In this document: positions 5,326-63,604 of the stretch, one piece after another
Layout of the letters: every line of letters starts with the position of its first letter
How positions within the stretch are numbered: the stretch's first letter is position 1
NCBI GenBank assembly: GCA_903901225.1
Contig: CAIUQE010000010.1
Span: 17,911 to 81,910, forward strand
Direction: 5' to 3'
From: Candidatus Omnitrophota bacterium
GTDB lineage: Bacteria; Omnitrophota; Gorgyraeia; Zapsychrales; Fredricksoniimonadaceae
Length of the DNA: 64,000 nucleotides
Notes under the pieces: model-generated
What the model was told of the DNA's origin: nothing
Seen by the model: the letters and a program-made list of their open reading frames with translations, nothing else
The model's database searches: none
Position numbers and translations under genes: made by a program

Positions 5326-7752
5326 ATGAATAGATACATTTGCATCCACGGGCATTTTTACCAGCCGCCGCGCGAGAACCCGTGGCTGGAGGCGGTGGAA
5401 CAGCAGGAATCCGCCCAGCCGTACCACGACTGGAACCAGCGCATCACGGCGGAATGCTACGCCCGCAACGGCGCGTCCCGCGTCCTTGACAGCGACGGGC
5501 GCATCCGCGAGATCGTCAACAATTATTCCAAGATCAGTTTTAATATCGGGCCCACGCTCCTCTCCTGGATGGAGGCGAAGGACCCGGACGCCTACCGGGC
5601 GATCCTTGAGGCGGACCGGCTGAGCCTGGAACGTTTTTCAGGGCACGGCGCGGCCATGGCCCAGGTCTATAACCACATCATCATGCCGCTGGCTTCGACG
5701 CGCGACAAGCGCACCCAGGTCATCTGGGGGATCCGCGACTTTGAACGGCGTTACCGCCGCAGGCCCGAGGGCATGTGGCTCGCCGAGACGGCCGTCGACG
5801 TGGAAAGCCTGGACATCATGGCCGAGCAGGGCATCCTTTTCACCGTGCTGGCGCCCCACCAGGCCCGGCGCGCGAAGAAGCTGACCGAAAAACGCGCCTG
5901 GGACCCGGCGGACGAGGAGAACATCGACCTGCGCCGCCCCTACCTGTGCAAGCTGCCGTCGGGGCGGACCATCGCGGTCTTCTTTTATGACGGGCCGGTC
6001 TCCCGCGCGGTGGCGTTCGAGGGGCTCCTGCATAACGGCGAATCGCTGGCCAACCGCCTTCTGGGGGCGTTCGACCGCCACGGCTCAGGCAACCAGCTGG
6101 TCCATATTGCCACCGATGGGGAATCTTACGGGCATCATCACAAGTTTGGCGACATGGCCCTTGCCTACGCGCTGTATTACCTGGAACAGAACAACCGCGC
6201 GAAGTTGACGGTCTACGGCGAGTACCTGGAAAAGAACCTGCCGCAGTACGAGGTTGAGGTCGTCGAGAACAGTTCCTGGAGCTGCATGCACGGGATCGAG
6301 CGCTGGCGCGACAACTGCGGCTGCAATTCCGGCGGGAAGCCCGGGTGGAACCAGGAATGGCGCGCGCCGCTGCGCAAGGCGCTGGATTTCCTGCGTGACC
6401 GCACGGCCGAGGTCTACGCGCGCGAAATGCAGAGCTTCGTGAAGGACCCCTGGGCCGTGCGCGACGCCTACATCCAGGTGATCCTCGACCGCAGCCGGAC
6501 TAACGTCGAGCGGTTCCTGACGCAGCAGATCGGCAAGGACCTGCCCATGGCGGATAAGAACAGGATATTGCGCTGCCTTGAGATGCAGCGCAACGCGCAG
6601 CTCATGTACACCAGTTGCGGGTGGTTCTTTGACGACATTTCCGGCATCGAGACCATCCAGATCATCAAGTACGCCGCGCGCCTGATCCAGCTTGTGCGGC
6701 GGGTGGCCGATGAGGACCTTGAGCTCGCGTTCCTGGAAATGATCGGCAAGGCTAAAAGCAACGCGCCCGAAGCCAATAACGGGGCGCGGATCTATAAAAT
6801 TTACGTCGAGCCGTCGATCGTCGATATCCTGCGCGTGGGCGCGCATTACGCCATGACCTCGCTGTACGAGGACCTCGGGCCCGAGGCCGGGATGTACTGT
6901 TTCACGGTGCGCCGCAAGGCGTATGAGAAACAGGTCATCGGCAAGATGACGCTCATCGTGGGCCGGGCCGAGATCATGTCCGAGATCACCTGGACGTCGT
7001 TCGACGTTTACTTCGCCGTGCTGCACCTCGGCGACCATAATTTTGTCTGCGGCGTTGATTATTTCAAGGACGCGGCCGTTTTTGAACGGTTGCGCAAGGA
7101 GATCGGCGGGATATTCAACGAGGGGGATGTGCCGCGCTCCATCCAGGCCATCAGCCGGTATTTCGGCGCCAAAAATTATTCCCTGTGGCATCTTTTTCAT
7201 CATGAACAGCAGATGGTCCTGGAGCGTATTTTCCAGAACACCATGAACGAGGTCGAGTCCTCGTTCCGCCATATTTATGAGGACCATTTCGCGCTGATCC
7301 GCATGTTGCACGAGAATCGCATCCCCCTGCCGAAAACGCTGGGGAGCGTGGCGGAATTCGTGTTCAACTGCGACCTTGGCCGCCTCCTGGGCGAGCCGGA
7401 GATATCCGTCGAGAAGCTGCAGCGGCTCGCGCGCGAGATCCGCACCTGGCCGTTCAAGCGCGACAGGGCGGGGCTTGATTTTGTCGTCGCCGCGCGGGTC
7501 AGCGCGATGATGGCGCGCATCGCGGCGCGGCCTGAAGATGTTGCCGCGATCGAGCACGCCACCCAGATCATCCGCCTCTTCCTGGAGTTGCGCCTTGAGG
7601 TCGACCTCTGGAAAGCCCAGAATATCTTTTACGCCGTGGCGCAGAACCTTTACCGTGACCGGCGCGACGAGGTGGAATATGACGCGTTCGCGAAGCGCTG
7701 GGTGACCGCGTTCGAGGCGCTGGCGGAACTCCTGAAAGTGAGGGTGGGTTGA
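5326..7752 (+). CDS. Glycoside hydrolase family 57 protein with long C-terminal extension (DUF3536-like)
   Basis: N-terminus HGHFYQPPRENPWLEAVEQQ is the GH57 signature. ATDGESYGHHHKFGDMALAYAL matches the GH57 catalytic region. 808 aa. Confidence 0.8.
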   Translation: MNRYICIHGHFYQPPRENPWLEAVEQQESAQPYHDWNQRITAECYARNGASRVLDSDGRIREIVNNYSKISFNIGPTLLSWMEAKDPDAYRAILEADRLSLERFSGHGAAMAQVYNHIIMPLASTRDKRTQVIWGIRDFERRYRRRPEGMWLAETAVDVESLDIMAEQGILFTVLAPHQARRAKKLTEKRAWDPADEENIDLRRPYLCKLPSGRTIAVFFYDGPVSRAVAFEGLLHNGESLANRLLGAFDRHGSGNQLVHIATDGESYGHHHKFGDMALAYALYYLEQNNRAKLTVYGEYLEKNLPQYEVEVVENSSWSCMHGIERWRDNCGCNSGGKPGWNQEWRAPLRKALDFLRDRTAEVYAREMQSFVKDPWAVRDAYIQVILDRSRTNVERFLTQQIGKDLPMADKNRILRCLEMQRNAQLMYTSCGWFFDDISGIETIQIIKYAARLIQLVRRVADEDLELAFLEMIGKAKSNAPEANNGARIYKIYVEPSIVDILRVGAHYAMTSLYEDLGPEAGMYCFTVRRKAYEKQVIGKMTLIVGRAEIMSEITWTSFDVYFAVLHLGDHNFVCGVDYFKDAAVFERLRKEIGGIFNEGDVPRSIQAISRYFGAKNYSLWHLFHHEQQMVLERIFQNTMNEVESSFRHIYEDHFALIRMLHENRIPLPKTLGSVAEFVFNCDLGRLLGEPEISVEKLQRLAREIRTWPFKRDRAGLDFVVAARVSAMMARIAARPEDVAAIEHATQIIRLFLELRLEVDLWKAQNIFYAVAQNLYRDRRDEVEYDAFAKRWVTAFEALAELLKVRVG

Positions 7753-33191: not shown

Positions 33192-33299
33192 CGCACGGGC
33201 AAGGGCGGTGTTGTCGAATTTTGGACTGGACATATAAAAGTTTTATAGCTAAAATACCGCTTCTTTTTAATAGCGTTAAATTAATTCCCGAGAGGCTTG

Positions 33300-36200
33300 A
33301 TGAACATGGGTTTGCCATCCAAACAGGGCCTGTATGATCCGCAGTTCGAACACGACGCCTGCGGTGTGGGTTTCGTGGTCGATATCAAGGGCCGCAAGAC
33401 GCACGCGATCGTCCGCCAGGGGGTCAAGATCCTTGAGAACCTGACCCATCGCGGGGCGTGCGGCAGCGATCCTTTCACCGGCGACGGTGCCGGGATCATC
33501 GTCCAGATGCCCGACAAGTTCCTGCGCAAGGAGTGCGCGCTGCAGGACATTGAACTGCCTCCGGCCGGGGAGTATGGCTGCGGGATCGTTTTCCTGCCCA
33601 CCATCCACCAGGAATGTAACCAGATCGAGGCCTGGACCGAGCATATCATCCATGAAGAAGGTCAGGAGTTCATCGGCTGGCGCGAGGTGCCGCATGACCT
33701 TACCCGCATCGGGCACGTGGCGCGTTCCGTCGCGCCCGGGTTCAAGCAGCTGTTCATCGGCCGCGGCAAAGGGACGACCGCGGAAGGTTTTGAGCGCAAA
33801 CTTCACGTCATCCGCAAGCGGCTTTACAACAAGGTCCAGGAATCGCGCCTGAGCCAGAAGAGCTTTTATTATTTTTGCAGCCTTTCGTCGAAGACCATGG
33901 TCTACAAGGGCCAGCTCATGGCCGAACAGGTGGACGCGTTCTTCAAGGACCTGGCCGACCCTGATTTCATTTCCGCGCTGGCGTTGGTCCATTCCCGTTA
34001 CAGCACCAACACGTTCCCGACCTGGGCTCTGGCGCATCCCTACAGGATGCTGGCGCACAACGGCGAGATCAATACCCTGCGCGGCAACATCAACTGGATG
34101 CGCGCGCGCGAAAAACAGTTCATCAGCGAGGCATTCGGCGAAGATATCAAGAAGGTTCTGCCTATCGTCGAGCCTTTCGGCAGCGATTCGGCGACATTTG
34201 ACAATGCCCTCGAGTTCCTGGTGCTGGCGGGGCGGCCCCTGCCGCACGCCGTCATGATGATGGTCCCCGAGGCCTGGGTCGGGCATGAGGATATGCCCCA
34301 GCTAAAGAAGGATTTTTACGAATATCACGCGACCATGATGGAGCCGTGGGACGGCCCCGCGTGCATCGCGTTCACGGACGGGCGTTATGTCGGCGCGGTG
34401 CTGGACCGTAACGGCCTGCGGCCGTCGCGCTACACCCTGACCAAGGACGGGCTTGTGATCCTCGCGTCCGAGACCGGTGTTCTGCCTGTTGAGCCTGAGC
34501 GCGTGGCAAAAAAATGGCGCCTGGAGCCAGGCAAGATGTTCTTGATCGACACGCTTGAAGGCCGTATCATCGACGACAAGGAGATCAAGGACCTTTACGC
34601 CGGCAAGCAGCCTTACGGCCAGTGGCTTAAGGAGAATATTGTCAGCCTCGACGACCTGCCTGCGCCCAAAGAGGTCCACGGGCTGAACGAAAAGACGCTC
34701 GTGGAGCGCCAGCGCGTGTTCGGTTATACCCAGGAAGACCTCAAGATCGTCCTCAAGCCCATGGTGGAGAACGGCGAGGAGGCCACAGGGTCCATGGGCG
34801 CGGACAATCCCATCGCGGTCCTGTCGCAGCGGCCCCAGCTTTTGTATAACTATTTCCAGCAGTTGTTCGCCCAGGTCACCAACCCGCCGGTCGACGCGAT
34901 CCGCGAGGAAGTCATCATGGCGGAGAACGTGTACCTTGGCTCCGAGGGGAACATCCTGACGGAGGTTCCCGGGCACGCGCGGCGTCTGCGCCTGGCGCGG
35001 CCGATCCTGACCAACAGGGAATTTGAACAGGTGGCGCACGTGCAGCGCCCTCACCTGAAAGCCGCGGCCCTGCCGATCATTTTCAGGAAAGCCGACGGCC
35101 CCGATACCCTCGAAAAGGCCCTGGAAGAACTGTACGCGCGCGCCGATAAGGCTGTTGCCGAAGGTTACAATATCCTGATCCTGTCCGACCGCAAGGCCTC
35201 GGAAAAGGATGTGCCCATGCCCGCGCTGCTGGCCTGCGCGGGGCTGCACCATCATCTGATCCGCGGCGGTACGCGCACGCAGGTGTCCCTTGTCATCGAG
35301 ACGGGAGAGGCGCGCGAGATGCATCACTTTGCCGTGCTCATCGGTTATGGCGCCAACGCGATCAATCCTTACCTGGCGTTCGAGACCATCGAGAGCGAGC
35401 TGAAAAAAGGGAATTATCCCCCGGAACTTGACCTCGAGCACGCGACCAAGAACTACATCAAGTCCATCCGCAAAGGGCTTTTCAAGGTCATTTCCAAGAT
35501 GGGGATATCGACGATCCAGTCCTATTGCGGGGCGCAGATCTTCGAGGCGGTCGGCCTTGGCGAGGAGCTTGTCGCGAAATATTTTACGTCCACGCCGTCG
35601 CGCATCGGCGGCATTGACCTGAAGACAGTGGCCGAAGAGACCCTGCGCCGGCACGCGCTGGCGTATCCGGCCATAGCGCACGCCAACGGAGTTCTCGATG
35701 AGGGCGGCTGGTATTACTGGCGCAAGGATGGCGAGTTCCACCAGATCAACCCGGAAGTGGTCGCGACCCTGCAGCACGCGGTGCGCACCGGCGATTACCA
35801 GTTGTACAAAAAATACGCCCGGCTTGTCAATGACAACGACAAGGCGGTGGCGAATATCCGCGGTCTCATGAAGTTCCGCAAGGGCCATCCGGTGCTGCTC
35901 GCCGATGTCGAGCCGGTAGACGAGATCGTCAAACGTTTCGCGACGGGCGCCATGAGCTATGGCTCTATTTCCAAGGAAGCGCACGAGACGTTGGGCATCG
36001 CCATGAACCGCCTCGGGGCTTTTTCCAACACGGGCGAGGGTGGCGAAGACCCCGCGCGTTTCAAGCTCGATGCCAACGGCGACAGCCGCCGCAGCCGCAT
36101 CAAGCAGGTGGCGCAGGGCCGTTTCGGCGTCAATATTGAATACCTTGTCAACGCGGACCAGCTGCAGATCAAGATGGCGCAGGGCGCCAAGCCCGGTGAG

Positions 36201-37841
36201 GGCGGGCAGCTGCCCGGGCACAAGGTCACCCGTGAGATCGCCACGACCCGCGGCACGACCCCCGGCGTCCAGCTTATTTCGCCGCCGCCGCACCATGATA
36301 TTTATTCGATCGAGGACCTGGCGCAACTGATCCATGACCTGAAGAACGCCAATCCGAAAGCGGATGTGAGCGTCAAGCTCGTCGCGGAGATCGGCGTCGG
36401 CACCGTTGCCGCCGGCGTGTCCAAGGGCAAGGCTGACCATGTTCTCATTTCCGGTTACGAAGGCGGTACGGGCGCCTCACCGCAGACCTCGATCAAGCAT
36501 GCCGGGCTGCCGATGGAACTCGGGTTGGCCGAGGCCCAGCAGGTGCTGGTGATGAACGACCTGCGCGGGCGCATCCGCGTGCAGACCGATGGCACGCTGA
36601 AGACCGGGAGGGACGTGGTCCTGACCGCCATGCTGGGCGCCGACGAGTTCGGATTTTCGACCATCGCCCTCGTGACCATGGGGTGCGTGATGCTGCGCAA
36701 ATGCCACCTTGACGCCTGTTCCGTCGGCATTGCCACCCAGGACCCCCGCCTGCGCGCGAATTTCCGCGGGCGTCCGGAACATGTGGTCAATTTCTTCAGG
36801 TTCGTTGCCGAAGAGGTCCGCGAGCTCATGGCGGAACTCGGGTTCAGGAAATTCGACGAGATGATCGGCCGGGTCGACATGCTCCAGGCCAGGGATGTGA
36901 TCGACCACTGGAAGCTGAAGGGGATCGACCTGACCAATATCCTGCACAAGCCCGATGTGCCATGGCACGTCCCCGTTTACCATTGCCTCAAGCAGGAACA
37001 CGGGCTTGAAAAGGCCCTGGACAACCATTTGATCGAAAAAAGCAGGGACGCGATCGAACGCCAGGTCCCTGTCGCTTTCACGTGCGAGGTGAAGAACACG
37101 AATCGTACCGTGGGCACGATGTTAAGCTCGACCATCGCGCGCAAATACGGGATGGCGGGGCTGCCTGAGGTCGCGGCGCGGGAGGGCGGCGTTCCGGCGA
37201 CCATCCATGTCACGTTCAATGGTTCGGCGGGGCAAAGCTTTGCGGCGTTCCTTTCCCGGGGGGTGACCTTCGAGCTTGAGGGCGACGCGAATGATTATGT
37301 CGGCAAGGGCCTTTCCGGTGGACGGGTGATCGTTTATCCACCCCGGAGTTCTTCCATTGTGGCCGAAGAGAACATCCTGGTCGGCAATGTTGTGCTTTAC
37401 GGCGGCATTGGCGGCGAAGCCTTCTTCCGCGGCGTGGCCGGCGAGCGTTTCGCGGTGCGCAATTCCGGGGTCCACGCGGTCGTTGAAGGGGTCGGTGACC
37501 ATGGTTGCGAATACATGACCGGAGGGCGCGTGGTTGTTATTGGCCCGACGGGCAGGAATTTCGCGGCGGGGATGTCGGGCGGGCTGGCCTATGTCTGGGA
37601 TAAAGACAAGACTTTCGCCGGGCGCTGTAATACGGGCATGGTCGATATTTTCCCGGTCAATGAGACGGCTGATATTGAAGAGCTCAAGGGCCTGGTCGAA
37701 CGTCACGCGCGCTACACCAACAGCGCCGTGGCGCGCGACATTCTGGCCCGCTGGCAGGATGTCCTGCCGCAGTTCGTGAAAATTTTCCCGCGCGAGTACC
37801 GTCGCGTTCTTCTTGCGGCCAGCGCGCCGTCCAAAGGTTAA
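33300..37841 (+). CDS. gltB: Glutamate synthase large subunit
   Basis: N-terminal amidotransferase CGVGFV. FMN and 4Fe-4S central domains. C-terminal GXGXG domain. ~1513 aa. Confidence 0.9.
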   Translation: MNMGLPSKQGLYDPQFEHDACGVGFVVDIKGRKTHAIVRQGVKILENLTHRGACGSDPFTGDGAGIIVQMPDKFLRKECALQDIELPPAGEYGCGIVFLPTIHQECNQIEAWTEHIIHEEGQEFIGWREVPHDLTRIGHVARSVAPGFKQLFIGRGKGTTAEGFERKLHVIRKRLYNKVQESRLSQKSFYYFCSLSSKTMVYKGQLMAEQVDAFFKDLADPDFISALALVHSRYSTNTFPTWALAHPYRMLAHNGEINTLRGNINWMRAREKQFISEAFGEDIKKVLPIVEPFGSDSATFDNALEFLVLAGRPLPHAVMMMVPEAWVGHEDMPQLKKDFYEYHATMMEPWDGPACIAFTDGRYVGAVLDRNGLRPSRYTLTKDGLVILASETGVLPVEPERVAKKWRLEPGKMFLIDTLEGRIIDDKEIKDLYAGKQPYGQWLKENIVSLDDLPAPKEVHGLNEKTLVERQRVFGYTQEDLKIVLKPMVENGEEATGSMGADNPIAVLSQRPQLLYNYFQQLFAQVTNPPVDAIREEVIMAENVYLGSEGNILTEVPGHARRLRLARPILTNREFEQVAHVQRPHLKAAALPIIFRKADGPDTLEKALEELYARADKAVAEGYNILILSDRKASEKDVPMPALLACAGLHHHLIRGGTRTQVSLVIETGEAREMHHFAVLIGYGANAINPYLAFETIESELKKGNYPPELDLEHATKNYIKSIRKGLFKVISKMGISTIQSYCGAQIFEAVGLGEELVAKYFTSTPSRIGGIDLKTVAEETLRRHALAYPAIAHANGVLDEGGWYYWRKDGEFHQINPEVVATLQHAVRTGDYQLYKKYARLVNDNDKAVANIRGLMKFRKGHPVLLADVEPVDEIVKRFATGAMSYGSISKEAHETLGIAMNRLGAFSNTGEGGEDPARFKLDANGDSRRSRIKQVAQGRFGVNIEYLVNADQLQIKMAQGAKPGEGGQLPGHKVTREIATTRGTTPGVQLISPPPHHDIYSIEDLAQLIHDLKNANPKADVSVKLVAEIGVGTVAAGVSKGKADHVLISGYEGGTGASPQTSIKHAGLPMELGLAEAQQVLVMNDLRGRIRVQTDGTLKTGRDVVLTAMLGADEFGFSTIALVTMGCVMLRKCHLDACSVGIATQDPRLRANFRGRPEHVVNFFRFVAEEVRELMAELGFRKFDEMIGRVDMLQARDVIDHWKLKGIDLTNILHKPDVPWHVPVYHCLKQEHGLEKALDNHLIEKSRDAIERQVPVAFTCEVKNTNRTVGTMLSSTIARKYGMAGLPEVAAREGGVPATIHVTFNGSAGQSFAAFLSRGVTFELEGDANDYVGKGLSGGRVIVYPPRSSSIVAEENILVGNVVLYGGIGGEAFFRGVAGERFAVRNSGVHAVVEGVGDHGCEYMTGGRVVVIGPTGRNFAAGMSGGLAYVWDKDKTFAGRCNTGMVDIFPVNETADIEELKGLVERHARYTNSAVARDILARWQDVLPQFVKIFPREYRRVLLAASAPSKG

Positions 37842-37855
37842 AAGGTCCGTGACAT

Positions 37856-39310
37856 ATGGGTGAAGTCAAAGGTTTCCTGAAATACAAGCGTGAAGAATAC
37901 GTCAAACAGCTTCCGGCTGAGCGCGTGAAACACTGGGATGAGTTCGTGAATCTTCCCGTTGAAACGTCGCTGCGGGAACAGGGCGGCCGTTGCATGGATT
38001 GCGGCATTCCTTTTTGCCAGTGGGGTTGCCCGGTTGGCAATATCATCCCCTCATGGAATGACCTGGTTTACCGGGGGCAGTGGAAAGAGGCGCTGGAGCG
38101 CCTGCACAGGACCAATAATTTTCCGGAGTTCACGGGCCGCGTGTGCCCCGCGCCTTGCGAGAATTCGTGCACGCTTTCGATCAACAATCCCGCGGTCACG
38201 ATCAAGAATATTGAGCTCGCGGTCATCGAGCGCGCGTATGCCGACGGCCTCATCAAGGCCGAGCCGCCAAAGTCCCGTTCGGGGATGAAGGTCGCGGTGG
38301 TCGGTTCCGGCCCCGCCGGGCTGGCCTGCGCGGATCAGCTCAACAAAAAAGGGCACAAGGTCACGGTTTACGAGAAGAATGAATTCATCGGCGGTCTTTT
38401 GACATTGGGGATCCCGAATTATAAACTTGAAAAAGAGGTCGTGGCGCGGCGCGTGAAACGCATGGAGCAGGAGGGCGTGACCTTCAAAACGGGCGTTAAC
38501 GTCGGCGTGGATATTGAGCCGGCCGCGCTGAAAGCGCAGCATGACGCCGTGGTCCTGTGCGGCGGCGCTGAACAGCCGCGCGATATCGCGATCCCGGGGC
38601 GCGCGTTGCAGGGGATCCATTTCGCGATGGAATATTTGAGCCAGCAGACACGCAAGCTTTTGGGTGTAAAACCTGATGCGGCGCGTGAGATCAATGCCCG
38701 GGGCAAGCGCGTGGTGGTCCTCGGCGGCGGCGATACCGGTTCCGATTGCGTCGGTACCGCGAACCGCCAGGGTGCTTTATGGGTCAAGCAATTTGAGCTG
38801 ATGCCGCGGCCGGAAGCGGAACGCGCGAATGATAACCCGTGGCCGCAATGGGCGCTGGTTTACCGGACATCGACGGCGCATGAGGAAGGCTGTGAGAGGG
38901 ACTACGGCATAGCCACGCAAAGGTTCACGGGCCAGGATGGCCGCTTGCAGAAGCTTCATGCCGCGCGGCTTGACTGGTCGCAAAAAGACCCGGTGACGGG
39001 CCGCGCTCTCATGAAAGACGTCGCGGGATCGGAATTCGCGCTGGAGTGCGACCTTGTTTTTCTCGCGCTGGGGTTCCTGGGCCCCTTGAAGGCGGGGCTT
39101 GTCGAGAAATTCGGGGTTGAGCTCGACAGCCGCGGGAATGTGAAGTCTGACGGGAACAAGATGACCACCGTGCCGGGGGTCTTTACGGCGGGGGATATGA
39201 CGCGCGGGCAGTCGCTGGTCGTATGGGCGATCAATGAAGGCCGCGCGGCCGCAGAAGGGGTCCACCAGTACCTTTTGTCCGGACAAAAAAAGAAAGAGAG
39301 CCGTTCATGA
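37856..39310 (+). CDS. gltD: Glutamate synthase small subunit (NADPH)
   Basis: Fe-S Cys motifs (CMDCGIPFCQWGCP). FAD/NAD Rossmann VAVVGSGPAGLA. Confidence 0.9.
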   Translation: MGEVKGFLKYKREEYVKQLPAERVKHWDEFVNLPVETSLREQGGRCMDCGIPFCQWGCPVGNIIPSWNDLVYRGQWKEALERLHRTNNFPEFTGRVCPAPCENSCTLSINNPAVTIKNIELAVIERAYADGLIKAEPPKSRSGMKVAVVGSGPAGLACADQLNKKGHKVTVYEKNEFIGGLLTLGIPNYKLEKEVVARRVKRMEQEGVTFKTGVNVGVDIEPAALKAQHDAVVLCGGAEQPRDIAIPGRALQGIHFAMEYLSQQTRKLLGVKPDAAREINARGKRVVVLGGGDTGSDCVGTANRQGALWVKQFELMPRPEAERANDNPWPQWALVYRTSTAHEEGCERDYGIATQRFTGQDGRLQKLHAARLDWSQKDPVTGRALMKDVAGSEFALECDLVFLALGFLGPLKAGLVEKFGVELDSRGNVKSDGNKMTTVPGVFTAGDMTRGQSLVVWAINEGRAAAEGVHQYLLSGQKKKESRS

Positions 39311-56736: not shown

Positions 56737-56821
56737 TGGTGCGCGGGGTGGGACTTGAACCCACATGCCTTACGGCATACGCCCCTCAAACGTACGTGTC
56801 TACCAATTTCACCACCCGCGC
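56737..56821 (-). tRNA. tRNA-Leu (anticodon GAG), class II with long variable arm
   Basis: Reverse complement folds as GCGCGGG acceptor, D-arm GTG/AAATTGGTAGA/CAC, anticodon stem-loop TACGT-TTGAGGG-GCGTA (GAG), variable hairpin GCC-GTAA-GGC, T-arm GTGGG-TTCAAGT-CCCAC, discriminator A, CCA encoded. Confidence 0.85.
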
Positions 56822-56938: not shown

Positions 56939-57655
56939 ATGCGTATCGACGTGAGTGCGAGTATCCTGGCCGCGGATTTTGGCAAGCTGGCCGAAGCGGT
57001 GCAGTTGTGTGAGCGTGCGGGCGTCGGGCGCATCCATGTGGATGTCATGGACGGGCACTTTGTCCCCACCATCACGATAGGGCCGCTGGTGGTGCAGGCG
57101 GTGCGTGCCTGCACGAAACTCCCGATCGCCGCGCATCTGATGATCGAGAATCCGTGGGACCACATTGACGCGTTCGCGGACGCCGGGGCGGATATCATCG
57201 GGGTGCACGCGGAATGCTATGGGGCTCGCCGGCTGGCTTGCCGGGAGCACGGGCAGTATCCGAAGGAAGTTGATGCCATTGATCCGCACAAGGCCAGGGC
57301 CGATATCCGGCGTATCAGGGATAAGGGAAAACAGGTTTGTTTCACGGTCAATCCGGGAACGCCGGTGCAGTGCCTGGACCCCATCCTCGGGGACCTTGAC
57401 GCCGTGCTCGTCATGTCGGTCAACCCCGGGTTTTCTGGCCAGAAATTCATGCCGGTGGCGGTCCCCAAGATCGCCTGGCTGCGTTCCATCGGGTTCAAGA
57501 AGGATGTTGCCATTGACGGTGGTGTGAACGCGCAGACCGCGCCCGCGGTCGTGCAGGCCGGCGCGAATGTGCTGGTCACGGCCAGTTATTTCTTTTCCAG
57601 CAAGGATCCAGCCGGCGACATCAAGGCCCTCAAGGCGCTGGGGGAGGGGCTGTGA
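56939..57655 (+). CDS. rpe: Ribulose-phosphate 3-epimerase
   Basis: RBS aaagggg. MRIDVSASILAADFGKL...HVDVMDGHFVP...NPGFSGQKF. Contains a ~25-aa insertion (RRLACREHGQYPKEVDAIDPHKARADIRR). The track ORF starts upstream at 56765. Confidence 0.85.
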   Translation: MRIDVSASILAADFGKLAEAVQLCERAGVGRIHVDVMDGHFVPTITIGPLVVQAVRACTKLPIAAHLMIENPWDHIDAFADAGADIIGVHAECYGARRLACREHGQYPKEVDAIDPHKARADIRRIRDKGKQVCFTVNPGTPVQCLDPILGDLDAVLVMSVNPGFSGQKFMPVAVPKIAWLRSIGFKKDVAIDGGVNAQTAPAVVQAGANVLVTASYFFSSKDPAGDIKALKALGEGL

Positions 57656-58014
57656 GGCTTATCCGGGAAAAATGCCCGCGATCCCGCGGGCAGGTCATGA
57701 TGGAGTATCTTCTGGTCATGGTTGCCGTCGCGTTCCTTGTCTTTGGTCTTTTCAAGGCGGGGTCCGGTGGCGGGCTTATCGAGCAGACACGGCAGACGAC
57801 CAATCAGTATTTTAATTCCGGGGCCATGGCGATCATGGGCGGTTATTACGACCCTGCGACGGGCACATATAAAGAAGTGAATCCCCAGCCTGTTGACGGC
57901 GGCTGGTGCTCCTGCGGCCATGCCAACGGGCACACGGTCCGTGAATGCGCCTGCCCGCGGCCCGCGTTTGGCGGCAATCCGTGTTCCGGGCGAGCTGTCG
58001 ACGATGGTTGTTAG
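57652..58014 (+). CDS. Flp/Fap-like type IVb prepilin with Cys-rich C-terminal extension
   Basis: Leader ...SRG|QVMMEYLLVMVAVAFLVFGLF matches the G/xxxxEY prepilin peptidase site plus a hydrophobic helix. C-terminus carries 6 Cys (WCSCGH...RECACP...PCSG...DDGC). The start is uncertain: GTG 57652 overlaps the rpe stop, and an alternative ATG at 57697 would leave no leader. Confidence 0.45.
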   Translation: MRLIREKCPRSRGQVMMEYLLVMVAVAFLVFGLFKAGSGGGLIEQTRQTTNQYFNSGAMAIMGGYYDPATGTYKEVNPQPVDGGWCSCGHANGHTVRECACPRPAFGGNPCSGRAVDDGC

Positions 58015-58016
58015 CG

Positions 58017-58955
58017 TTAAACCCGGTCGCTCCTGCGTTTATCCCTCACGAAATTGCTTTTATTCTGGCTCTTGGCGAATTTCTTCAGTTCCGCCCCGAT
58101 CTCCCCGACCTGCGCCACGTGGGCTATCCGCATGAACGCGTTTGAAACGATCCCGATGGAAATGGACATGAGCCCGATCTTTATTTCATTGCCCTGCCGG
58201 TCCTTGCCCGTGATGAACCCGGCCGCGCGGTCTTCCTCCGAGTAAAAGCCCGGTGAGTTCGCGTCAAAAAGGTCAATGATCTTCTGGCTGATCGCGTCCG
58301 CGACCGCGTCATCGCTGACAAAAACGAAATCGTCCCCGCCGATATGCCCCACGAACACGTTGTTGCCGCCCGCCTCTTTGGCCGCCTGGATGATGACGCG
58401 CGCCGTGGCTTTGATGATCTCGTCGCCTTTTTCGAAACCGTATTTGTCGTTGAAAAGCTTGAACTTGTCGAGGTCGCAGTAGCCCACCGCGAATTTCCCG
58501 CCGCTCTCGATGCGGCTTTGCAACTCGTCCATGATCGAGGCATTGCCGGGGAGGTGGGTGAGCGGGTTGGCGTCGAGGTTGCGGATGGTCCGCACCATGA
58601 TCATGTTGATGCGCGCGAGCAGGTTGTCCGGCTCGAAGGGCTTGATCAGGTAATCGTCGGCGCCCGCGTTGATCCCCTTGACCATGTCCTTGGTGTCGCC
58701 CTTGCCCGTGAGCAGGATGATAGGGATGTGCGATAAAAGGACATCCTTGCGCAGTTCCTTGCAGAATTCCGGGCCAGTCATGACGGGCATCATGTAGTCC
58801 GTGATGATGATGTCCGGGTTGCCCGTCCTTGCCTGCGCGAGCCCTTCCGCGCCGTTGGAGGCTTTGATCACATCGAAGCGCTCTGAAAGCGTCAGTTCAA
58901 GCACGTCGAGGATGTCAGGGTCGTCGTCAATGATCAGGATCCGTTCACGTTTCAT
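58017..58955 (-). CDS. Response regulator: receiver domain + GGDEF-type domain with GGDDF variant motif
   Basis: REC (ILIIDDDPDI...ITDYMMP...KP). GGDEF-family region (PLTHLPGNASIM...YCDLDKFKLFND...GHIGGDDFVFV). Confidence 0.8.
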   Translation of the reverse strand: MKRERILIIDDDPDILDVLELTLSERFDVIKASNGAEGLAQARTGNPDIIITDYMMPVMTGPEFCKELRKDVLLSHIPIILLTGKGDTKDMVKGINAGADDYLIKPFEPDNLLARINMIMVRTIRNLDANPLTHLPGNASIMDELQSRIESGGKFAVGYCDLDKFKLFNDKYGFEKGDEIIKATARVIIQAAKEAGGNNVFVGHIGGDDFVFVSDDAVADAISQKIIDLFDANSPGFYSEEDRAAGFITGKDRQGNEIKIGLMSISIGIVSNAFMRIAHVAQVGEIGAELKKFAKSQNKSNFVRDKRRSDRV

Positions 58956-60514
58956 AGGTCATCCGTAAGTTTTCTGGTTTTTTTCGTTTCTTTGGGTTTG
59001 TGCTGGAACGGGATGGCAAAGTGGAAAATAGTCCCGTGGCCGACCTCACTCGTGACCCACATGCGTCCGAAGTGGGCCTCGACGATGTTCTTCGCCAGCG
59101 CAAGGCCAAGGCCCGTGCCCTTGACTTTCATGTTGATCTCGTTGTCGACGCGGAAGAACTCGTCGAAAAGTTTGGAAAGGTCTTCTTTGGGGATGCCGAT
59201 GCCGGTGTCGGCGACCTCGAACAGGGCTTCCGCCCGCTCGAGGTTGGGGTGCCCGTTGACCGTGATGGTGCCTTGCGCGGGCGTGAACTTGATCGCGTTG
59301 CCGATAAGGTTGATGAACACGCGGTCCAGTTGGCTGGCGTCGTATTCGATCAGGGGCAGGTCGGCGGGAATGTTGAGCTTGAGCGTCACGCCCTTGTCCC
59401 GGAGTTGCGGCGTCAGCAGGTCGGCGATATTCTCGAGCATCGGCACCACGTTTTGCGGCAGGGCCTTCATTTCCACGCGGCCGGATTCGATCCTGGAAAT
59501 ATCCAGCAGGTCGTTGATGAGCTTGACCAGGTTGTCCGAATGCGTGTTGATCTTGGCGAGGCGCTCCTTGACGGCGTCAGGGATCGCGCCCACTTTTCCC
59601 GTCATGAGGATCGAGGCGTAGCCTTTGATGGAGGTCAGCGGCGTGCGCAGCTCATGTGAAACGGCGGAGATGAATTCGGATTTCTTTTTGGAGATGGTCT
59701 CGACTTCCTTGAGCGCGTGGGAGAGTTCGCGGGTCCTGTCATTGACCTTTGTTTCCAGTGTCCGGGTCGAGCGGTAGACCTGTTCGAAGAGCTGCGAGTT
59801 CTCGATGGACTGGGCCAGCTGCCCGGCCAGGATGGCGATGAGCTCTTCGTCGCCCTCGTTGACGGCCGGCGCGTTGTAGCGGTTGCCGACAAAAAGGGCC
59901 CCGGCCACGCCCCGCTGGGTCAGGAGCGGGGAGAGGATGAAATGTTCCGTCTCGAAAAGCTGGACGATGCGGGCCCTGGTCTTCTGGGATGAATTGAGCG
60001 AGGAAAAGGTCATGCCGTCGCGCAGCGCGCCGAGGAACTGGGTGTCCGCGGTCAATTCGGCCTGGATGCGTTCCTGCCGGGAAGGGTCGATCCCGATGTT
60101 GACCCGGGTGAGCAAGGCGCCGTTCTCCTCGTTGGTCAGCACCAGGGCGCTGGCGAAGCCAAGTTCCGACAGGAGGTCCTTGTTGATCTTCTGGAAGATC
60201 TCCTGTTCGTCCAGGGTCATGCTCATGGTGCGCGAAAGTTTCTGCAGGGTATTGAGGCCCTTGAGGCGCCTGTCGAGCTCTTCCTGGGTCTTGTTGAGCT
60301 CGAGGTCCGTCTTGACGATGAGCTTGGCCTGCTCATCCAGTTCGTTGAACGAATTGATCATCTTGTCGAAAGAGGCCTTGAGTTCCTTGTATTCCTCGGA
60401 TTTTCCGATCAGGAAATAAGCCAGGGCGCTCACCGCCGTGACAAGGATGAGGCTTGTCCCGACCAGAAAGGGCGTGATGCTGAAAGTATTGACGGGATAG
60501 GCTACATTGACCAT
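58952..60514 (-). CDS. Membrane-anchored sensor histidine kinase (TM - coiled coil - GAF - HisKA - HATPase_c)
   Basis: N-terminal TM helix. H-box SHELRTPLTSIKGYA. N/G boxes (GNAIKFT..., GTGLGLAL). Confidence 0.85.
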   Translation of the reverse strand: MVNVAYPVNTFSITPFLVGTSLILVTAVSALAYFLIGKSEEYKELKASFDKMINSFNELDEQAKLIVKTDLELNKTQEELDRRLKGLNTLQKLSRTMSMTLDEQEIFQKINKDLLSELGFASALVLTNEENGALLTRVNIGIDPSRQERIQAELTADTQFLGALRDGMTFSSLNSSQKTRARIVQLFETEHFILSPLLTQRGVAGALFVGNRYNAPAVNEGDEELIAILAGQLAQSIENSQLFEQVYRSTRTLETKVNDRTRELSHALKEVETISKKKSEFISAVSHELRTPLTSIKGYASILMTGKVGAIPDAVKERLAKINTHSDNLVKLINDLLDISRIESGRVEMKALPQNVVPMLENIADLLTPQLRDKGVTLKLNIPADLPLIEYDASQLDRVFINLIGNAIKFTPAQGTITVNGHPNLERAEALFEVADTGIGIPKEDLSKLFDEFFRVDNEINMKVKGTGLGLALAKNIVEAHFGRMWVTSEVGHGTIFHFAIPFQHKPKETKKTRKLTDDL

Positions 60515-60517
60515 GTT

Positions 60518-61744
60518 TTATCCGATCGCCAGGAGTGTCACGCTCCCGTTCAACAACTGGGTTGGAGCGACATGCCCGGCCGTTGCCGGCGCGGCTATTT
60601 CCGCGATCGTTTGCATTCCGAACACAGGCACACCGGCGCCCAGGATGTCGCGGATCGCCTGCAGGCCGTGGGTCGCGTGATACCCGAGGACTTTTTGCCG
60701 TGTGAAGGACTCGAACGCCAGGACAAATTTCGGCGGTTTGTCGAGAAAATGTTCCCGGATCTCCAGGGCCGCGTCCTGGATGGTCCGGCGGCAGGCGCTT
60801 TTGTCCATGATCATCAGGTGGACCGGGCTTCCCGCCGGTATTTCGCCCTGACATACGATACTACCGTCAGAAAGGATGTCAATGGGGATGCGGATCAAAT
60901 ATTCGCGTGGCGTGGCGGTCCCGATCCCCAGAGGGTAAAGCAGGCGCAGGTCATTGAGCTGGCCTGGCCGTAGGTCGGAGGGAGTGCCTTGCGACGCGCC
61001 GTTCGGCACTGGTGCGGCGTCCATGTTCTGGAAATAATTCCTGTAGAGGTGAGCTGCCGGCTGCTTGTCAATGGTGCGGATGATATTCCCGTCGGAGGCG
61101 TCGATGATCCGGGGCTTGCCCAGGGGTTTCCAGTTGTGCCGGGATGAAACGCACACGGCGCCGGCGCCGCCGATCATGAGGCCTATCGTGGTATCGATGA
61201 GGATCTGTGTCTGGTAGAAATGCCGCGTGAAGGCCAGTTGGCTGCTGTCCATGCTGATGGCGCCGATGACGGGCAAAGCACTCCCGAGCCCTTCGCGCAG
61301 GCCGGCGCACAGCTGGCTGCCGTTCTTGCGCAGGCCATCGTAAAAGAAAAGGAAGGCGCTGCGCTGGGGGAATTTGTAATCTTCGATGACGGCCTGGCTC
61401 AAGCGGAGCCCCGCTTCGCGGGTGGGAATGAGTCCGAGCCGGTCAATATCCGCGGCGCCGAAGTGAAGTTCATTGGAAATGATCGCCAGGATGCCGATGC
61501 CGCGCGGTTCGACGTGGTCTTGCACAATAATACCGGGCGTGATGGAGCCTATCAACCGCTGGGGCTGCAGGATCCGGCGCACGGTCTCCAGTCCTTCGGG
61601 GTTGGCGTAAGCAGTGGTCGTGAACAGGATGACCAGGTCTGTCCTGACGGCGTTCAATTGTGTCTTCACGTCGATGGCCGCGGCCTTGCAGGCTTCGAGG
61701 GGGTCCTTGATGGAGGAAAAGCCGATGGCGATCTGTGTGGGCAT
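60518..61744 (-). CDS. FIST-domain (FIST_N + FIST_C) sensory protein
   Basis: 408 aa. Matches the FIST architecture. Tightly linked upstream of the HK and RR. Confidence 0.75.
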   Translation of the reverse strand: MPTQIAIGFSSIKDPLEACKAAAIDVKTQLNAVRTDLVILFTTTAYANPEGLETVRRILQPQRLIGSITPGIIVQDHVEPRGIGILAIISNELHFGAADIDRLGLIPTREAGLRLSQAVIEDYKFPQRSAFLFFYDGLRKNGSQLCAGLREGLGSALPVIGAISMDSSQLAFTRHFYQTQILIDTTIGLMIGGAGAVCVSSRHNWKPLGKPRIIDASDGNIIRTIDKQPAAHLYRNYFQNMDAAPVPNGASQGTPSDLRPGQLNDLRLLYPLGIGTATPREYLIRIPIDILSDGSIVCQGEIPAGSPVHLMIMDKSACRRTIQDAALEIREHFLDKPPKFVLAFESFTRQKVLGYHATHGLQAIRDILGAGVPVFGMQTIAEIAAPATAGHVAPTQLLNGSVTLLAIG

Positions 61745-61808
61745 ACCCCTATTGTATGTCGCGCGAAAAGGCTGTCAACAAAAGGCATCCTTATCGTGAT
61801 ACGGGATA

Positions 61809-62150
61809 TCAGCCGATGGCCGGGGCCCCTTCTTCACCCGTGCGGATACGGATGCAGCGTTCCAGGTCCGTGACGAATATCTTACCATCACCGATCTTGC
61901 CCGTGCGCGCCCCCTTGATGATGGCCGCGATGGTGCGGTCAACAAAGGCCTCGTTCACGGCGATGTCCACCCGGATCTTGCGCAGGAGGTTGCCTGTTTC
62001 CTTGATGCCGCGGTAGAATTCGTCCACGCCGAACTGGCGGCCGTGGCCGAGGGCTTCACAGACCGTGATGAGGTTCACGTCGGCCGCGTAAAGTTCTTTT
62101 TTGACTTCGTCGAGCCTGTGGGGCTGGATGATGGCTGTGATGAGTTTCAT
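61809..62150 (-). CDS. glnK: Nitrogen regulatory protein P-II
   Basis: MKLITAIIQPHRLDEVK...T-loop GRQFG...Y (uridylylation Tyr)...DGKIFV. Directly downstream of amtB. Confidence 0.9.
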   Translation of the reverse strand: MKLITAIIQPHRLDEVKKELYAADVNLITVCEALGHGRQFGVDEFYRGIKETGNLLRKIRVDIAVNEAFVDRTIAAIIKGARTGKIGDGKIFVTDLERCIRIRTGEEGAPAIG

Positions 62151-62167
62151 GGTGATCCCTCCTTGAT

Positions 62168-63406
62168 TTATTCTAGCATGGTATAGGCGCGTTCAAAGTG
62201 CTGGGTCAGGTCCAGCCCCATGATCTCATCTTCGGGCGTGACCCTCAGTCCGATCGCTTTGTCGATCACGAAGGCGATGACGGCTGTACCCGCGGCGCAG
62301 TAAACGACCGTGAAGCACGCGGCCAGTAGTTCGGTCCTGAACGTGGCCATGTTGCCCAAAAGAAGCCCGTTGGCACCGGCGGGATTGACCGCGGTCGTGG
62401 CGAAAATGCCGGTGGCGATCATGCCCCAGAACCCGCCCACGCCGTGCACGCCGAAAGCGTCGAGGGAATCGTCGTAGCCGAATTTCTGCTTGATGGTGCT
62501 GACGGAATAAAAGCTCAAAGCCCCGATGACCAGGCCGATGAGGATGGCGGCTTTGGGTTCAACAAAGCCGCAGGCCGGGGTGATGGCCACGAGCCCCGCG
62601 ATGACGCCGGAGATCGTCCCGAACATGGTCGGTTTGCCGGTGGTAAGCCATTCCACGGCCGCCCAGCTGACCGCCGCGGCCGCCGCCGAAAGGTTGGTCG
62701 TGACGAAAGCGTTCGCCGCCACACCGTTGGCCGCCAGGGCAGATCCCGCGTTGAAGCCGAGCCAGCCGAACCAGAGCAGCCCACCACCGAGGACCACCAA
62801 CGGAAGGTTGTGGAGCGTCGGGCGGTTGAGGCCGATGCGTTTGCCGAGGATCAGGGAGGCCACGAGTCCCGCGACCCCGCAGTTGATCTCAACGACACAC
62901 CCGCCCGCGAAATCAAGGACGCCCTGGGAACGCAGCCAGCCGTCCGCGCCCCAGACCATGTGGCAAATCGGGATATAGACGAAGGTGAGCCAGGCCAGCG
63001 TGAAGACGAGGAACGCGGAGAACTTGAACCGTTCCACAAGGGAACCGATGATGACCGCGGGCGTGATGACCGCGAACATGGCCTGGAAGATCATGAAGGC
63101 GCTGTGGGGGATGGTCGGGGCGTAGTCTTTGTTGGGCGCCATGCCGACACCGTCGAGGCCAAGCCATTCGAAGCCGCCGATGAACCCGTTGCCCCGACCG
63201 AACGCGAGCGAATAACCGTAAATTGCCCAGGCCAGCAGGATGATCCCGAGGCAGGCGAAGCATTGCATGAGGATGGCGAGGATGTTCTTGCGGCGGACCA
63301 TGCCGCCGTAGAAGAACGCGAGGGCGGGCGTCATGAGCATGACAAGCCCCGCGGAGATGAGGACCCAGGCGGTGTCCCCGGCGTTGATGACAGGTGCTGT
63401 TCCCAT
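62168..63406 (-). CDS. amtB: Ammonium transporter
   Basis: ATG at 63406 with RBS AAGGAG. 11-12 TM helices. Amt signatures (GGMVRRKN, DFAGG, GAIAGLVAITPA-like). The track ORF extends upstream to 63532. Confidence 0.9.
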   Translation of the reverse strand: MGTAPVINAGDTAWVLISAGLVMLMTPALAFFYGGMVRRKNILAILMQCFACLGIILLAWAIYGYSLAFGRGNGFIGGFEWLGLDGVGMAPNKDYAPTIPHSAFMIFQAMFAVITPAVIIGSLVERFKFSAFLVFTLAWLTFVYIPICHMVWGADGWLRSQGVLDFAGGCVVEINCGVAGLVASLILGKRIGLNRPTLHNLPLVVLGGGLLWFGWLGFNAGSALAANGVAANAFVTTNLSAAAAAVSWAAVEWLTTGKPTMFGTISGVIAGLVAITPACGFVEPKAAILIGLVIGALSFYSVSTIKQKFGYDDSLDAFGVHGVGGFWGMIATGIFATTAVNPAGANGLLLGNMATFRTELLAACFTVVYCAAGTAVIAFVIDKAIGLRVTPEDEIMGLDLTQHFERAYTMLE

Positions 63407-63432: not shown

Positions 63433-63458
63433 ATTTTGGCAAGGATCCCTGCCAAAAT
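63433..63458 (-). promoter_or_regulatory. Palindrome ATTTTGGCA-N8-TGCCAAAAT 30-50 nt upstream of amtB. Looks like a sigma54 -24/-12 element but the spacer is 1 nt too long
   Basis: On the amtB strand reads TGGCAGGgatccTTGCC (GG-N11-GC versus canonical GG-N10-GC). Perfectly symmetric outer arms. Confidence 0.35.
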
Positions 63459-63604
63459 AAAAATACCCGGACCGTCCGAAAATAATTTCGGATGAACCGG
63501 GCATCATTGCCGTTCTGGATCGTCCCGCGCAAACGCCAGCGCCTGCTCAGGATTTGAAAATAATAATCGCGGGGGAGGGGAATGTCAAATTAAAAAAAGC
63601 ATAG

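Follow-up and report, generated by a model that had tools for sequence, protein, structure and literature searches.

We analyzed a 64,000-nt stretch of contig CAIUQE010000010.1 (GenBank assembly GCA_903901225.1) from a Candidatus Omnitrophota bacterium, called the window below. Between positions 58017 and 63406, five open reading frames (ORFs) were confirmed on the minus strand. They encode an ammonium transporter (amtB), a P-II signal protein (glnK), a FIST protein, a histidine kinase (HK) and a response regulator (RR) with a GGDEF-family output domain. The initial annotation had read them as one cotranscribed unit that links ammonium uptake and P-II signaling to a module of the cyclic di-GMP (c-di-GMP) type. 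Our results point to a different arrangement. The locus probably consists of two adjacent, independent transcription units, amtB-glnK and FIST-HK-RR, and a five-gene pathway from nitrogen status to a second messenger is not supported. Against cotranscription stand a promoter match of 11/12 in the glnK-FIST gap, a comparable match before the FIST gene in 20/33 loci, and the presence of amtB-glnK beside the FIST gene in only 7 of 30 related loci. The genes are listed here.

62168-63406, minus strand: amtB, ammonium transporter, 412 amino acids (aa); Pfam PF00909 410 bits, TIGR00836 460 bits
61809-62150, minus strand: glnK, P-II signal protein, 113 aa; Pfam PF00543 87.6 bits
60518-61744, minus strand: stand-alone FIST_N+FIST_C protein, 408 aa; FIST_N 99 bits, FIST_C 64.6 bits
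58952-60514, minus strand: HK, 520 aa; HisKA 70.8 bits, HATPase_c 97.8 bits
58017-58955, minus strand: RR, REC plus a GGDEF-family domain with the motif GGDDF, 312 aa; Response_reg 100.6 bits, GGDEF 49.3 bits

Read from the sequence, amtB and glnK are separated by 17 nt, glnK and the FIST gene by 64 nt, and the FIST and HK genes by 3 nt. The HK and RR genes overlap by 4 nt (ATGA). The five genes, their short spacing and their domain identities, as originally annotated, were therefore borne out by the ORFs and by the Pfam and TIGR scores, with the GAF domain of the kinase as the weakest call. The named homologues belong to Candidatus Omnitrophota.

The gap between glnK and the FIST gene contains a sigma-70-like promoter.

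61751..61778, minus strand: promoter of the FIST operon, TTGACA-16-TACAAT, matching the consensus at 11/12 positions

The -10 box of this promoter stops 6 nt short of the FIST ATG. The related loci L168, L169, L170 and L171 share the pattern, with TTGACA-16/17-TACAAT and precisely the same 6-nt distance to the start codon; L171 keeps this arrangement though it has no amtB-glnK. For a census, the 100 nt that precede the FIST gene were taken from 33 distinct loci, with 740 segments from inside coding sequence as controls. Promoter matches of at least 11/12 occurred in 20/33 loci and in 0/740 controls; a match of 10/12 was seen in 1.1% of the controls. Because an in-frame TGA lies upstream of the FIST ATG, there is no earlier start codon, and the homologues start at the same Met. 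A -10 box so close to the ATG predicts that the mRNA of the FIST operon is probably leaderless. The only purine-rich stretch, AGGGG 1 nt upstream of the ATG, would be too close to act as a ribosome-binding site on a read-through transcript.

Two relatives carry terminator-like elements in this region. In L004, hairpin-plus-T-run elements follow glnK. In L172, a long hairpin (CCTTCCTGC...GCAGGAAGG) followed by T6 was seen at 5922-6000, across the FIST promoter spacer and the short leader; it was not called by a simple terminator scan. This hairpin would form only on transcripts that come from upstream, so it could stop read-through from glnK and spare the transcripts begun at the FIST promoter.

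Related loci were gathered via the regulator, via the FIST protein and via a scan of species-representative genomes, and all five proteins were placed in them by tblastn. We based the synteny counts on the 30 loci with more than 2 kb of DNA upstream of the FIST gene. FIST, HK and RR genes stood in the same order in 30/30 of them, and likewise in every locus with enough DNA and a regulator at least 49% identical to that of the window. amtB-glnK preceded the FIST gene in seven loci: the window's own contig, L168, L169, L088, L170, L172 and L004. These all belong to one sub-clade, in which the regulators are at least 78% identical to the window's. The remaining 23 loci carry the triad without amtB-glnK. 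One of these, L171, lies within the amtB-bearing sub-clade; in the 22 outside it (regulators 53-71% identical), neither amtB nor glnK was present in any of the DNA retrieved. When species-representative genomes were searched with a profile of the regulator alignment, the matches listed were mostly distant REC-GGDDF proteins of other phyla, and among those matches (at most 47% identity) no FIST, amtB or glnK gene was found nearby. Phylogenetic profiling, which the initial annotation had recommended, thus upholds its three-gene module, with the 3-nt gap and 4-nt overlap, and detaches that module from amtB-glnK. A strong promoter or terminator between glnK and the FIST gene, combined with a lack of conserved synteny, had been named there as an argument against a functional link. 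A conserved internal promoter and an adjacency confined to one sub-clade come largely to the same thing.

The related loci share a common backbone. Its first part is bacA, tRNA-Glu(CTC), a variable slot and FIST-HK-RR, and its second part is a variable small ORF, rpe, tRNA-Leu(GAG), pyrG, purF and carB. In distant loci, some 100-170 nt separate the FIST gene from an upstream, divergently oriented tRNA-Glu gene. Where amtB is present, amtB-glnK stands between tRNA-Glu(CTC) and the FIST gene, and therefore the adjacency looks like an occupied variable slot. The flanking housekeeping genes (bacA, tRNA-Glu, rpe, pyrG, purF and carB) are as syntenic as the adjacency of amtB-glnK and FIST. Since the whole neighborhood is equally syntenic, adjacency alone carries little weight. 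It probably records the history of a variable slot in one sub-lineage and not a shared pathway.

The FIST operon is bracketed in related Omnitrophota loci by tRNA-Glu(CTC) upstream and tRNA-Leu(GAG) downstream, beside rpe and pyrG. Lineages differ in the strand on which the two tRNAs are called with respect to their neighbors. Their positions are as follows.

Window 56737-56821: tRNA-Leu
L002 5091-5164: tRNA-Glu
L091 5424-5498: tRNA-Glu
L103 7126-7202: tRNA-Glu
L115 6930-7004: tRNA-Glu
L006 4680-4753: tRNA-Glu
L170 4028-4104: tRNA-Glu
L001 6975-7052: tRNA-Glu

The proteins of the locus are conserved to very different degrees. Compared with the L002 proteins, identity was 72% for PyrG, 71% for RR, 56% for Rpe, 55% for HK and 38% for FIST. 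Across Omnitrophota loci the regulator (53-95% identity) is about as conserved as CTP synthase (PyrG). The FIST protein evolves much faster than the regulator, with 25-83% identity across L002-L172. The kinase core is intermediate between the two, and the sensor half of the kinase evolves faster than the core.

Upstream of amtB we found a second promoter, followed by a structured leader.

63560..63588, minus strand: sigma-70-like promoter of amtB-glnK, TTGACA-17-TATTAT, 11/12 match
63454..63558, minus strand: amtB leader of ~105 nt, ANTAR-type attenuator, conserved in 7 loci with covariation
63524-63551: leader hairpin P1, long, with a hexaloop cap
63500-63511: leader hairpin P3, hexaloop, GGC-AAUGAU-GCC
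63465-63502: intrinsic terminator of the leader, followed by a T-run

Promoter and leader together (63454-63588 on the minus strand of the window, 8157-8291 in L001) have counterparts in the other six amtB-bearing loci, and the TTGACA box is at the same place upstream of amtB in all seven. P1 and the terminator are separated by one or two small hairpins, P2 (five loci) and P3, each with a six-base loop. The middle hairpin P2 has been lost from the leaders of the window and L168. P3 reads GGGC-AAUGAY-GCCC across the loci. Its 3' strand (GCC) is also the first part of the 5' strand of the terminator stem, and the two structures overlap. Both sides change in 9 of 11 P1 pairs and in 7 of 13 terminator pairs, and about 92% of cells in the leader alignment are paired versus 23-48% with the partners slid. 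This covariation supports the structure of P1 and the terminator. Wherever P2 and P3 occur, the first base of their loop is A and the fourth is G, and in P1 the fourth loop base is likewise an invariant G. In L168, only ~25 nt lie between the T-run of the leader and the amtB start. A further promoter would not fit into this space, so transcription of amtB has to read through the terminator.

The reported ANTAR target consists of two hexaloop hairpins with A1 and G4, the second of which is mutually exclusive with an intrinsic terminator, and such targets were reported ahead of genes for P-II and for ammonium transporters (PMC3369931). The amtB leader shows the same features, A1/G4 hexaloops and a P3 strand shared with the terminator. 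Like the EutV, NasR and AmiR leaders, it carries tandem A1/G4 hexaloops, the last of which shares a terminator strand (PMC3369931). Unlike them, the window leader has no P2 and would have to use P1 and P3. In addition, P1 is of unusual length, and the first base of its loop is G instead of A in 4/7 loci, the window included. Its own promoter and a leader of ANTAR signature account for nitrogen control of amtB-glnK in an ordinary way, within the unit itself.

The gathering scan of the window with Rfam returned tRNA-Leu only, and c-di-GMP and glutamine riboswitches were unmatched, so the amtB leader is not a catalogued riboswitch. A permissive Rfam scan of the leader gave chance-level matches only, caused by a palindrome. 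This 26-nt near-perfect palindrome, ATTTTGGCAGGGATCCTTGCCAAAAT (window 63433-63458, minus strand), lies between the T-run of the leader and the amtB ribosome-binding site. It is unique to the window's leader, does not occur in L168 or other relatives, and is the source of spurious microRNA matches in Rfam. We considered the palindrome as a sigma-54 promoter and rejected it because the GG-to-GC spacing is one base off and the element is not in relatives. Leader-peptide attenuation, prompted by a conserved ATGAYG, was rejected because conservation downstream tracks base-pairing and not codons. Within the window, the exact GGCAATGAYGCC motif is confined to the amtB leader. gltB and gltD, for the large and small subunits of glutamate synthase, lie at 33297-39310 on the plus strand of the window; nothing similar to the motif and no ANTAR-type hexaloop was seen upstream of gltB.

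AmtB scored well above the cut-offs of PF00909 (23.2 bits) and TIGR00836 (343 bits). On the equivalog model of E. coli AmtB it reached 371 bits against a cut-off of 657, so it is classed as a family member only. In P-II proteins, Arg47 of the T-loop plugs AmtB, and Tyr51 is uridylylated in the proteobacterial type. In the T-loop of the window's GlnK (residues 37-58), Arg47 is kept and residue 51 is Glu and not Tyr, in what we take to be the E. coli GlnK numbering. The feature for uridylylation is thus absent. GlnK of the relatives is 85-98% identical to that of the window.

Both FIST scores exceed their cut-offs (23.2 bits for FIST_N and 28.5 bits for FIST_C). The AlphaFold model of the protein has a pLDDT of 87.5, and its best fold match in the PDB is the FIST domain of human FBXO22 (E 9e-12). 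A PDB sequence search with the FIST protein gave nothing at E <= 1, and no solved bacterial FIST structure was found in the sequence and fold searches of the PDB. No His or Cys is invariant across 25 aligned FIST homologues.

The kinase has one N-terminal hydrophobic segment (membrane anchor), a coiled coil, a GAF-like module, HisKA and HATPase_c. On the GAF, GAF_2 and GAF_3 models the window kinase scored 20-22 bits versus gathering cut-offs of 22-29, and orthologous kinases show GAF_3 or GAF_2 matches. Over residues 1-239 the kinase shares 33% identity (E 6e-36) with P0121, which reaches the GAF_2 threshold. P0121 (445 aa) is a one-component protein in which the same membrane-anchor/coiled-coil/GAF module is joined directly to a GGDDF domain. 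Since P0121 fuses both in one protein, the sensor of the kinase is tied to GGDDF output.

A FIST gene beside a kinase and a regulator is a known layout. In the NosP-NahK-NarR and NosP-NosK-NosR systems, which occur in Pseudomonas, Legionella, Vibrio and Burkholderia, a stand-alone FIST protein tunes the autophosphorylation of the adjacent kinase, alongside a c-di-GMP-metabolizing regulator (PMC8846402, PMC12570481). The same three-component layout is present here, with the FIST-HK-RR order, the 3-nt gap and the 4-nt overlap, and is kept in all 30 loci. As in NosP-NahK-NarR, the window's stand-alone FIST gene adjoins a kinase and a regulator with an output of the c-di-GMP type. Several points differ. 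The window FIST protein scored 40 bits on the NosP equivalog model NF041558, whose cut-off is 450, and only residues 19-236 align; because of this score, we regard it as a FIST protein in a NosP-like layout and not as a NosP. The window kinase is not a hybrid and has its own membrane anchor and GAF-like sensor. The regulator carries GGDDF only, with no EAL or HD-GYP, and the host is an uncultured Omnitrophota bacterium. The best reading is that the FIST/GAF-kinase/REC-GGDDF operon is a new variant of the NosP-type layout. By analogy, the FIST protein is presumed to be an accessory sensor of the kinase. The initial annotation had described FIST domains as binders of small ligands such as amino acids. 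This is an older view, and the characterized stand-alone FIST proteins beside kinases (NosP) are reported as heme/nitric oxide sensors (PMC8846402, PMC12570481).

Links of ammonium or P-II to c-di-GMP have also been published. Sd-Amt1 is an Amt-HAMP-GGDEF ammonium receptor that links ammonium to c-di-GMP (PMC11152129), and P-II control of c-di-GMP was described in Azospirillum (PMC7646526). Sd-Amt1 was among the PDB sequence matches of the GGDDF domain. In those cases the link is a fused protein or a P-II interaction that was demonstrated, whereas here it is only gene adjacency in one sub-lineage. With both the layout and the ammonium/P-II connection on record, the earlier claim of a pathway not described does not hold. 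Our literature search found no paper on a FIST-HK-RR module in Omnitrophota.

The GGDDF motif of the regulator was confirmed in the sequence HIGGDDFVF. Its GGDEF match exceeds the cut-off of PF00990 (23.8 bits) and covers only model positions 5-103 of 161. The AlphaFold model of the regulator has a pLDDT of 81, with WspR, PleD and DgcR as the best fold matches. The regulator resembles these three in its domain order, phospho-acceptor residues and helical linker, as well as in its metal-binding Asp, Lys and guanine-reading Asn/Asp. In 14 regulator orthologues GGDDF, D161, K166, N169, D178 and K295 (in the C-terminal AK) are invariant. The REC residues D10, D11, D53, T83 and K105 are invariant in the orthologues as well. 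D161, K166, N169 and D178 align to the DxD-FK-ND-GD block of solved cyclases. We take D161 to be the metal-binding Asp, K166 the phosphate-binding Lys, and N169 and D178 the guanine-reading Asn and Asp of cyclases; the counterparts that are kept are presumably D327, K332, N335, D344 and K442 in PleD numbering.

Unlike WspR, PleD and DgcR, the regulator has GGDDF for GG[DE]EF, His for Arg before the motif, Ser for Arg of the C-terminal GRN, and LPGN for L.NRR. It also lacks the RxxD I-site and carries a conserved insert. The canonical A-site motif [G/A/S]G[D/E]E[F/Y] is replaced by GGDDF. Five residues before the motif, at the place of the I-site, the window reads G-N-N-V, and RxxD was found in no orthologue of the 14-orthologue alignment. 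In the alignment of A-site and I-site residues called for in the initial annotation, the metal and guanine residues are kept, and the canonical A-site motif and RxxD are not.

A full scan of 1.84 billion cluster representatives was made with the GGDDF domain, and 714 of them matched at E <= 1e-30. GGDDF itself was present in 146 of the 150 best representatives. A Pfam domain census of the 79 multidomain members among these 150 gave REC in 39, HAMP in 23, EAL in 21, CBS in 9, MshEN in 3 and HD-GYP in 1. The GGDDF domain is often the sole output domain after REC, HAMP, GAF or Cache. This constancy and the EAL, MshEN and HD-GYP fusions make GGDDF the fixed signature of a large subfamily within c-di-GMP networks. 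The motif had been described as non-canonical and perhaps catalytically altered. Given its frequency in the family, it is not a local degeneration, and one GGDDF enzyme was active in vivo (PMC8835794).

That enzyme is GSU1937, the Hypr-GGDDF cGAMP synthase of Geobacter sulfurreducens, which shares the motif with the regulator. GSU1937 is active in vivo and its GADDF mutant is dead; it is the only reported case of a GGDDF motif that supports catalysis in vivo (PMC8835794). Unlike the regulator, it has the Hypr Ser where the regulator has Asp, and it is membrane-anchored and not REC-controlled. The motif is also shared with the GGDDF-CBS-EAL proteins PA3258 of P. aeruginosa and DdpB of Bordetella, in keeping with the EAL (21/79) and CBS (9/79) content of the subfamily. 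Their GGDDF accompanies EAL, whereas in the regulator GGDDF is the only output domain. No cyclase activity was reported for PA3258 and DdpB (PMC8835794, PMC12805831). On balance, the GGDDF domain of the regulator is more probably an active cyclase than not.

We propose the following model for the two units. The first would be an ordinary ammonium-uptake/P-II operon with its own promoter, gated by the leader terminator. Under nitrogen scarcity this terminator is probably overcome by an RNA-binding antiterminator of the ANTAR type, whose gene would lie elsewhere in the genome; the protein would hold the hexaloop hairpins, including the one that competes with the terminator stem. The second unit would be an autonomous FIST-HK-RR signaling operon found across Omnitrophota, with its own promoter, a probably leaderless mRNA, and FIST, HK and RR genes that may be translationally coupled. 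By analogy with NosP-NahK, the soluble FIST protein would bind the membrane-anchored GAF kinase and alter its autophosphorylation. The kinase would then phosphorylate Asp53 of the regulator. Phosphorylation would dimerize the regulator via the helical linker and switch on the GGDDF domain, which most likely makes c-di-GMP from GTP, without product inhibition. The genes present, their synteny, the promoters, the structure of the leader and the conserved residues are observed; that FIST acts on the kinase, that the domain is a cyclase and that an ANTAR protein exists is inferred.

Several observations weigh against this model. The window's own 64-nt gap between glnK and FIST has no predicted terminator, so read-through from amtB-glnK into the FIST gene may occur in this lineage. 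Both promoter calls are matches to the sigma-70 consensus only, and this consensus may not be that of the Omnitrophota host. Of the eight sub-clade members sampled, seven have kept the adjacency of amtB-glnK as FIST diverged to 41% identity, and such persistence could reflect selection. The FIST protein also stands far from NosP, with 40 bits against the cut-off of 450. No convincing ANTAR gene was found when the six-frame ORFs of the window were searched with a regular expression. In the regulator, three positions relevant in PleD are changed (E371 to D, R366 to H and R446 to S), and the sequence between the motif and the last strands includes a conserved insert, FY..EDR..G.I.GKDRQG.

The changes in the regulator bear on the question of whether the GGDDF domain is a cyclase at all. 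If it is not, the regulator would be a phosphorylation-controlled receptor of GTP or c-di-GMP, or a partner-switching adaptor, and the motif would be conserved for binding. Degenerate GGDEF domains commonly act as receptors. The fourth residue of the GGDEF motif is, to our knowledge, Glu in every well-studied cyclase, and here it is Asp. His and Ser stand at the counterparts of PleD R366 and R446, the Pfam match spans just part of the GGDEF model, and the very high conservation of the regulator would also suit a protein-protein interface. PA3258, a GGDDF-EAL protein, gave no cyclase phenotype according to the citation in PMC8835794. Against this, there is no variation at the two metal carboxylate positions, at the Lys or at the guanine-reading Asn/Asp, and GGDDF is the sole output behind many sensor types, as with active cyclases. 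A receptor would also have no RxxD I-site to receive c-di-GMP, and GSU1937 needs its intact motif for activity (PMC8835794). We consider a role without cyclase activity doubtful, and an active GGDDF cyclase remains the preferred reading.

An undivided transcription unit fares worse. It would be one nitrogen-responsive operon of five genes, in which ammonium/P-II status sets the level or the activity of the FIST/kinase/GGDDF module. The link would be read-through from the attenuated amtB promoter, or a complex of GlnK with the kinase or the FIST protein, on the model of P-II and NtrB, a histidine kinase known to be under P-II regulation. The five genes are on the same strand, the 64-nt gap shows no predicted terminator, and seven distinct contigs, with FIST identities as low as 41%, share the five-gene order. 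P-II proteins regulate c-di-GMP levels (PMC7646526), and an Amt-GGDEF ammonium receptor exists (PMC11152129). These points are opposed by the 23/30 loci that have the triad without amtB-glnK, including L171 from the same sub-clade, and by a conserved strong promoter that abuts the FIST start codon whatever stands upstream. On a read-through transcript, AGGGG at 1 nt from the FIST ATG would be a poorly spaced Shine-Dalgarno sequence. Terminator-like hairpins follow glnK in L004 and L172, and bacA, tRNA-Glu, rpe, pyrG, purF and carB are equally syntenic. A single operon is improbable on this evidence.

Two separate units could still be coupled within the amtB-bearing sub-lineage. Under nitrogen limitation, ANTAR-released read-through might extend into FIST-HK-RR, GlnK might bind the kinase or the FIST protein, or both might happen. 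We give this only a slim chance. If it were true, nitrogen status would act on the GGDDF cyclase in addition to the FIST ligand that otherwise controls it.

It is highly improbable that the GGDDF subfamily is an active nucleotidyl cyclase with a product other than c-di-GMP: GGDDF resembles the GGDD of the Cas10 palm and two family members weakly match Cas10-Cmr2_palm2, the conserved insert and altered phosphate-binding residues could change substrate handling, and Hypr-GGDEF enzymes are a precedent for a change of product within the fold (PMC8835794), but the guanine readers are canonical, since Asp178 stands where Hypr cGAMP synthases have Ser and Asn169 is kept, and the frequent fusion to EAL, MshEN and HD-GYP puts the domain in c-di-GMP networks.

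A small plus-strand ORF at 57652-58014 converges on the stop codon of the RR gene. Its product carries a hydrophobic helix at the N-terminus, is Cys-rich at the C-terminus and matched no family. The gene at this position varies in size and sequence among related loci.

The five-gene proposal, if true, would be a new route from nitrogen to a second messenger; the evidence favors two known kinds of unit that are neighbors by chance in one lineage. For the first unit, ANTAR-type attenuation of amtB-glnK appears to reach Omnitrophota. For the second, the FIST/GAF-kinase/REC-GGDDF module was present in every related locus examined from Omnitrophota, a phylum without a genetic system. Because the regulator evolves as slowly as CTP synthase, a central signaling role is suggested for this module. 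GGDDF marks a large branch of the GGDEF family that is biochemically almost untested, and the activity of this branch bears on the annotation of thousands of proteins.

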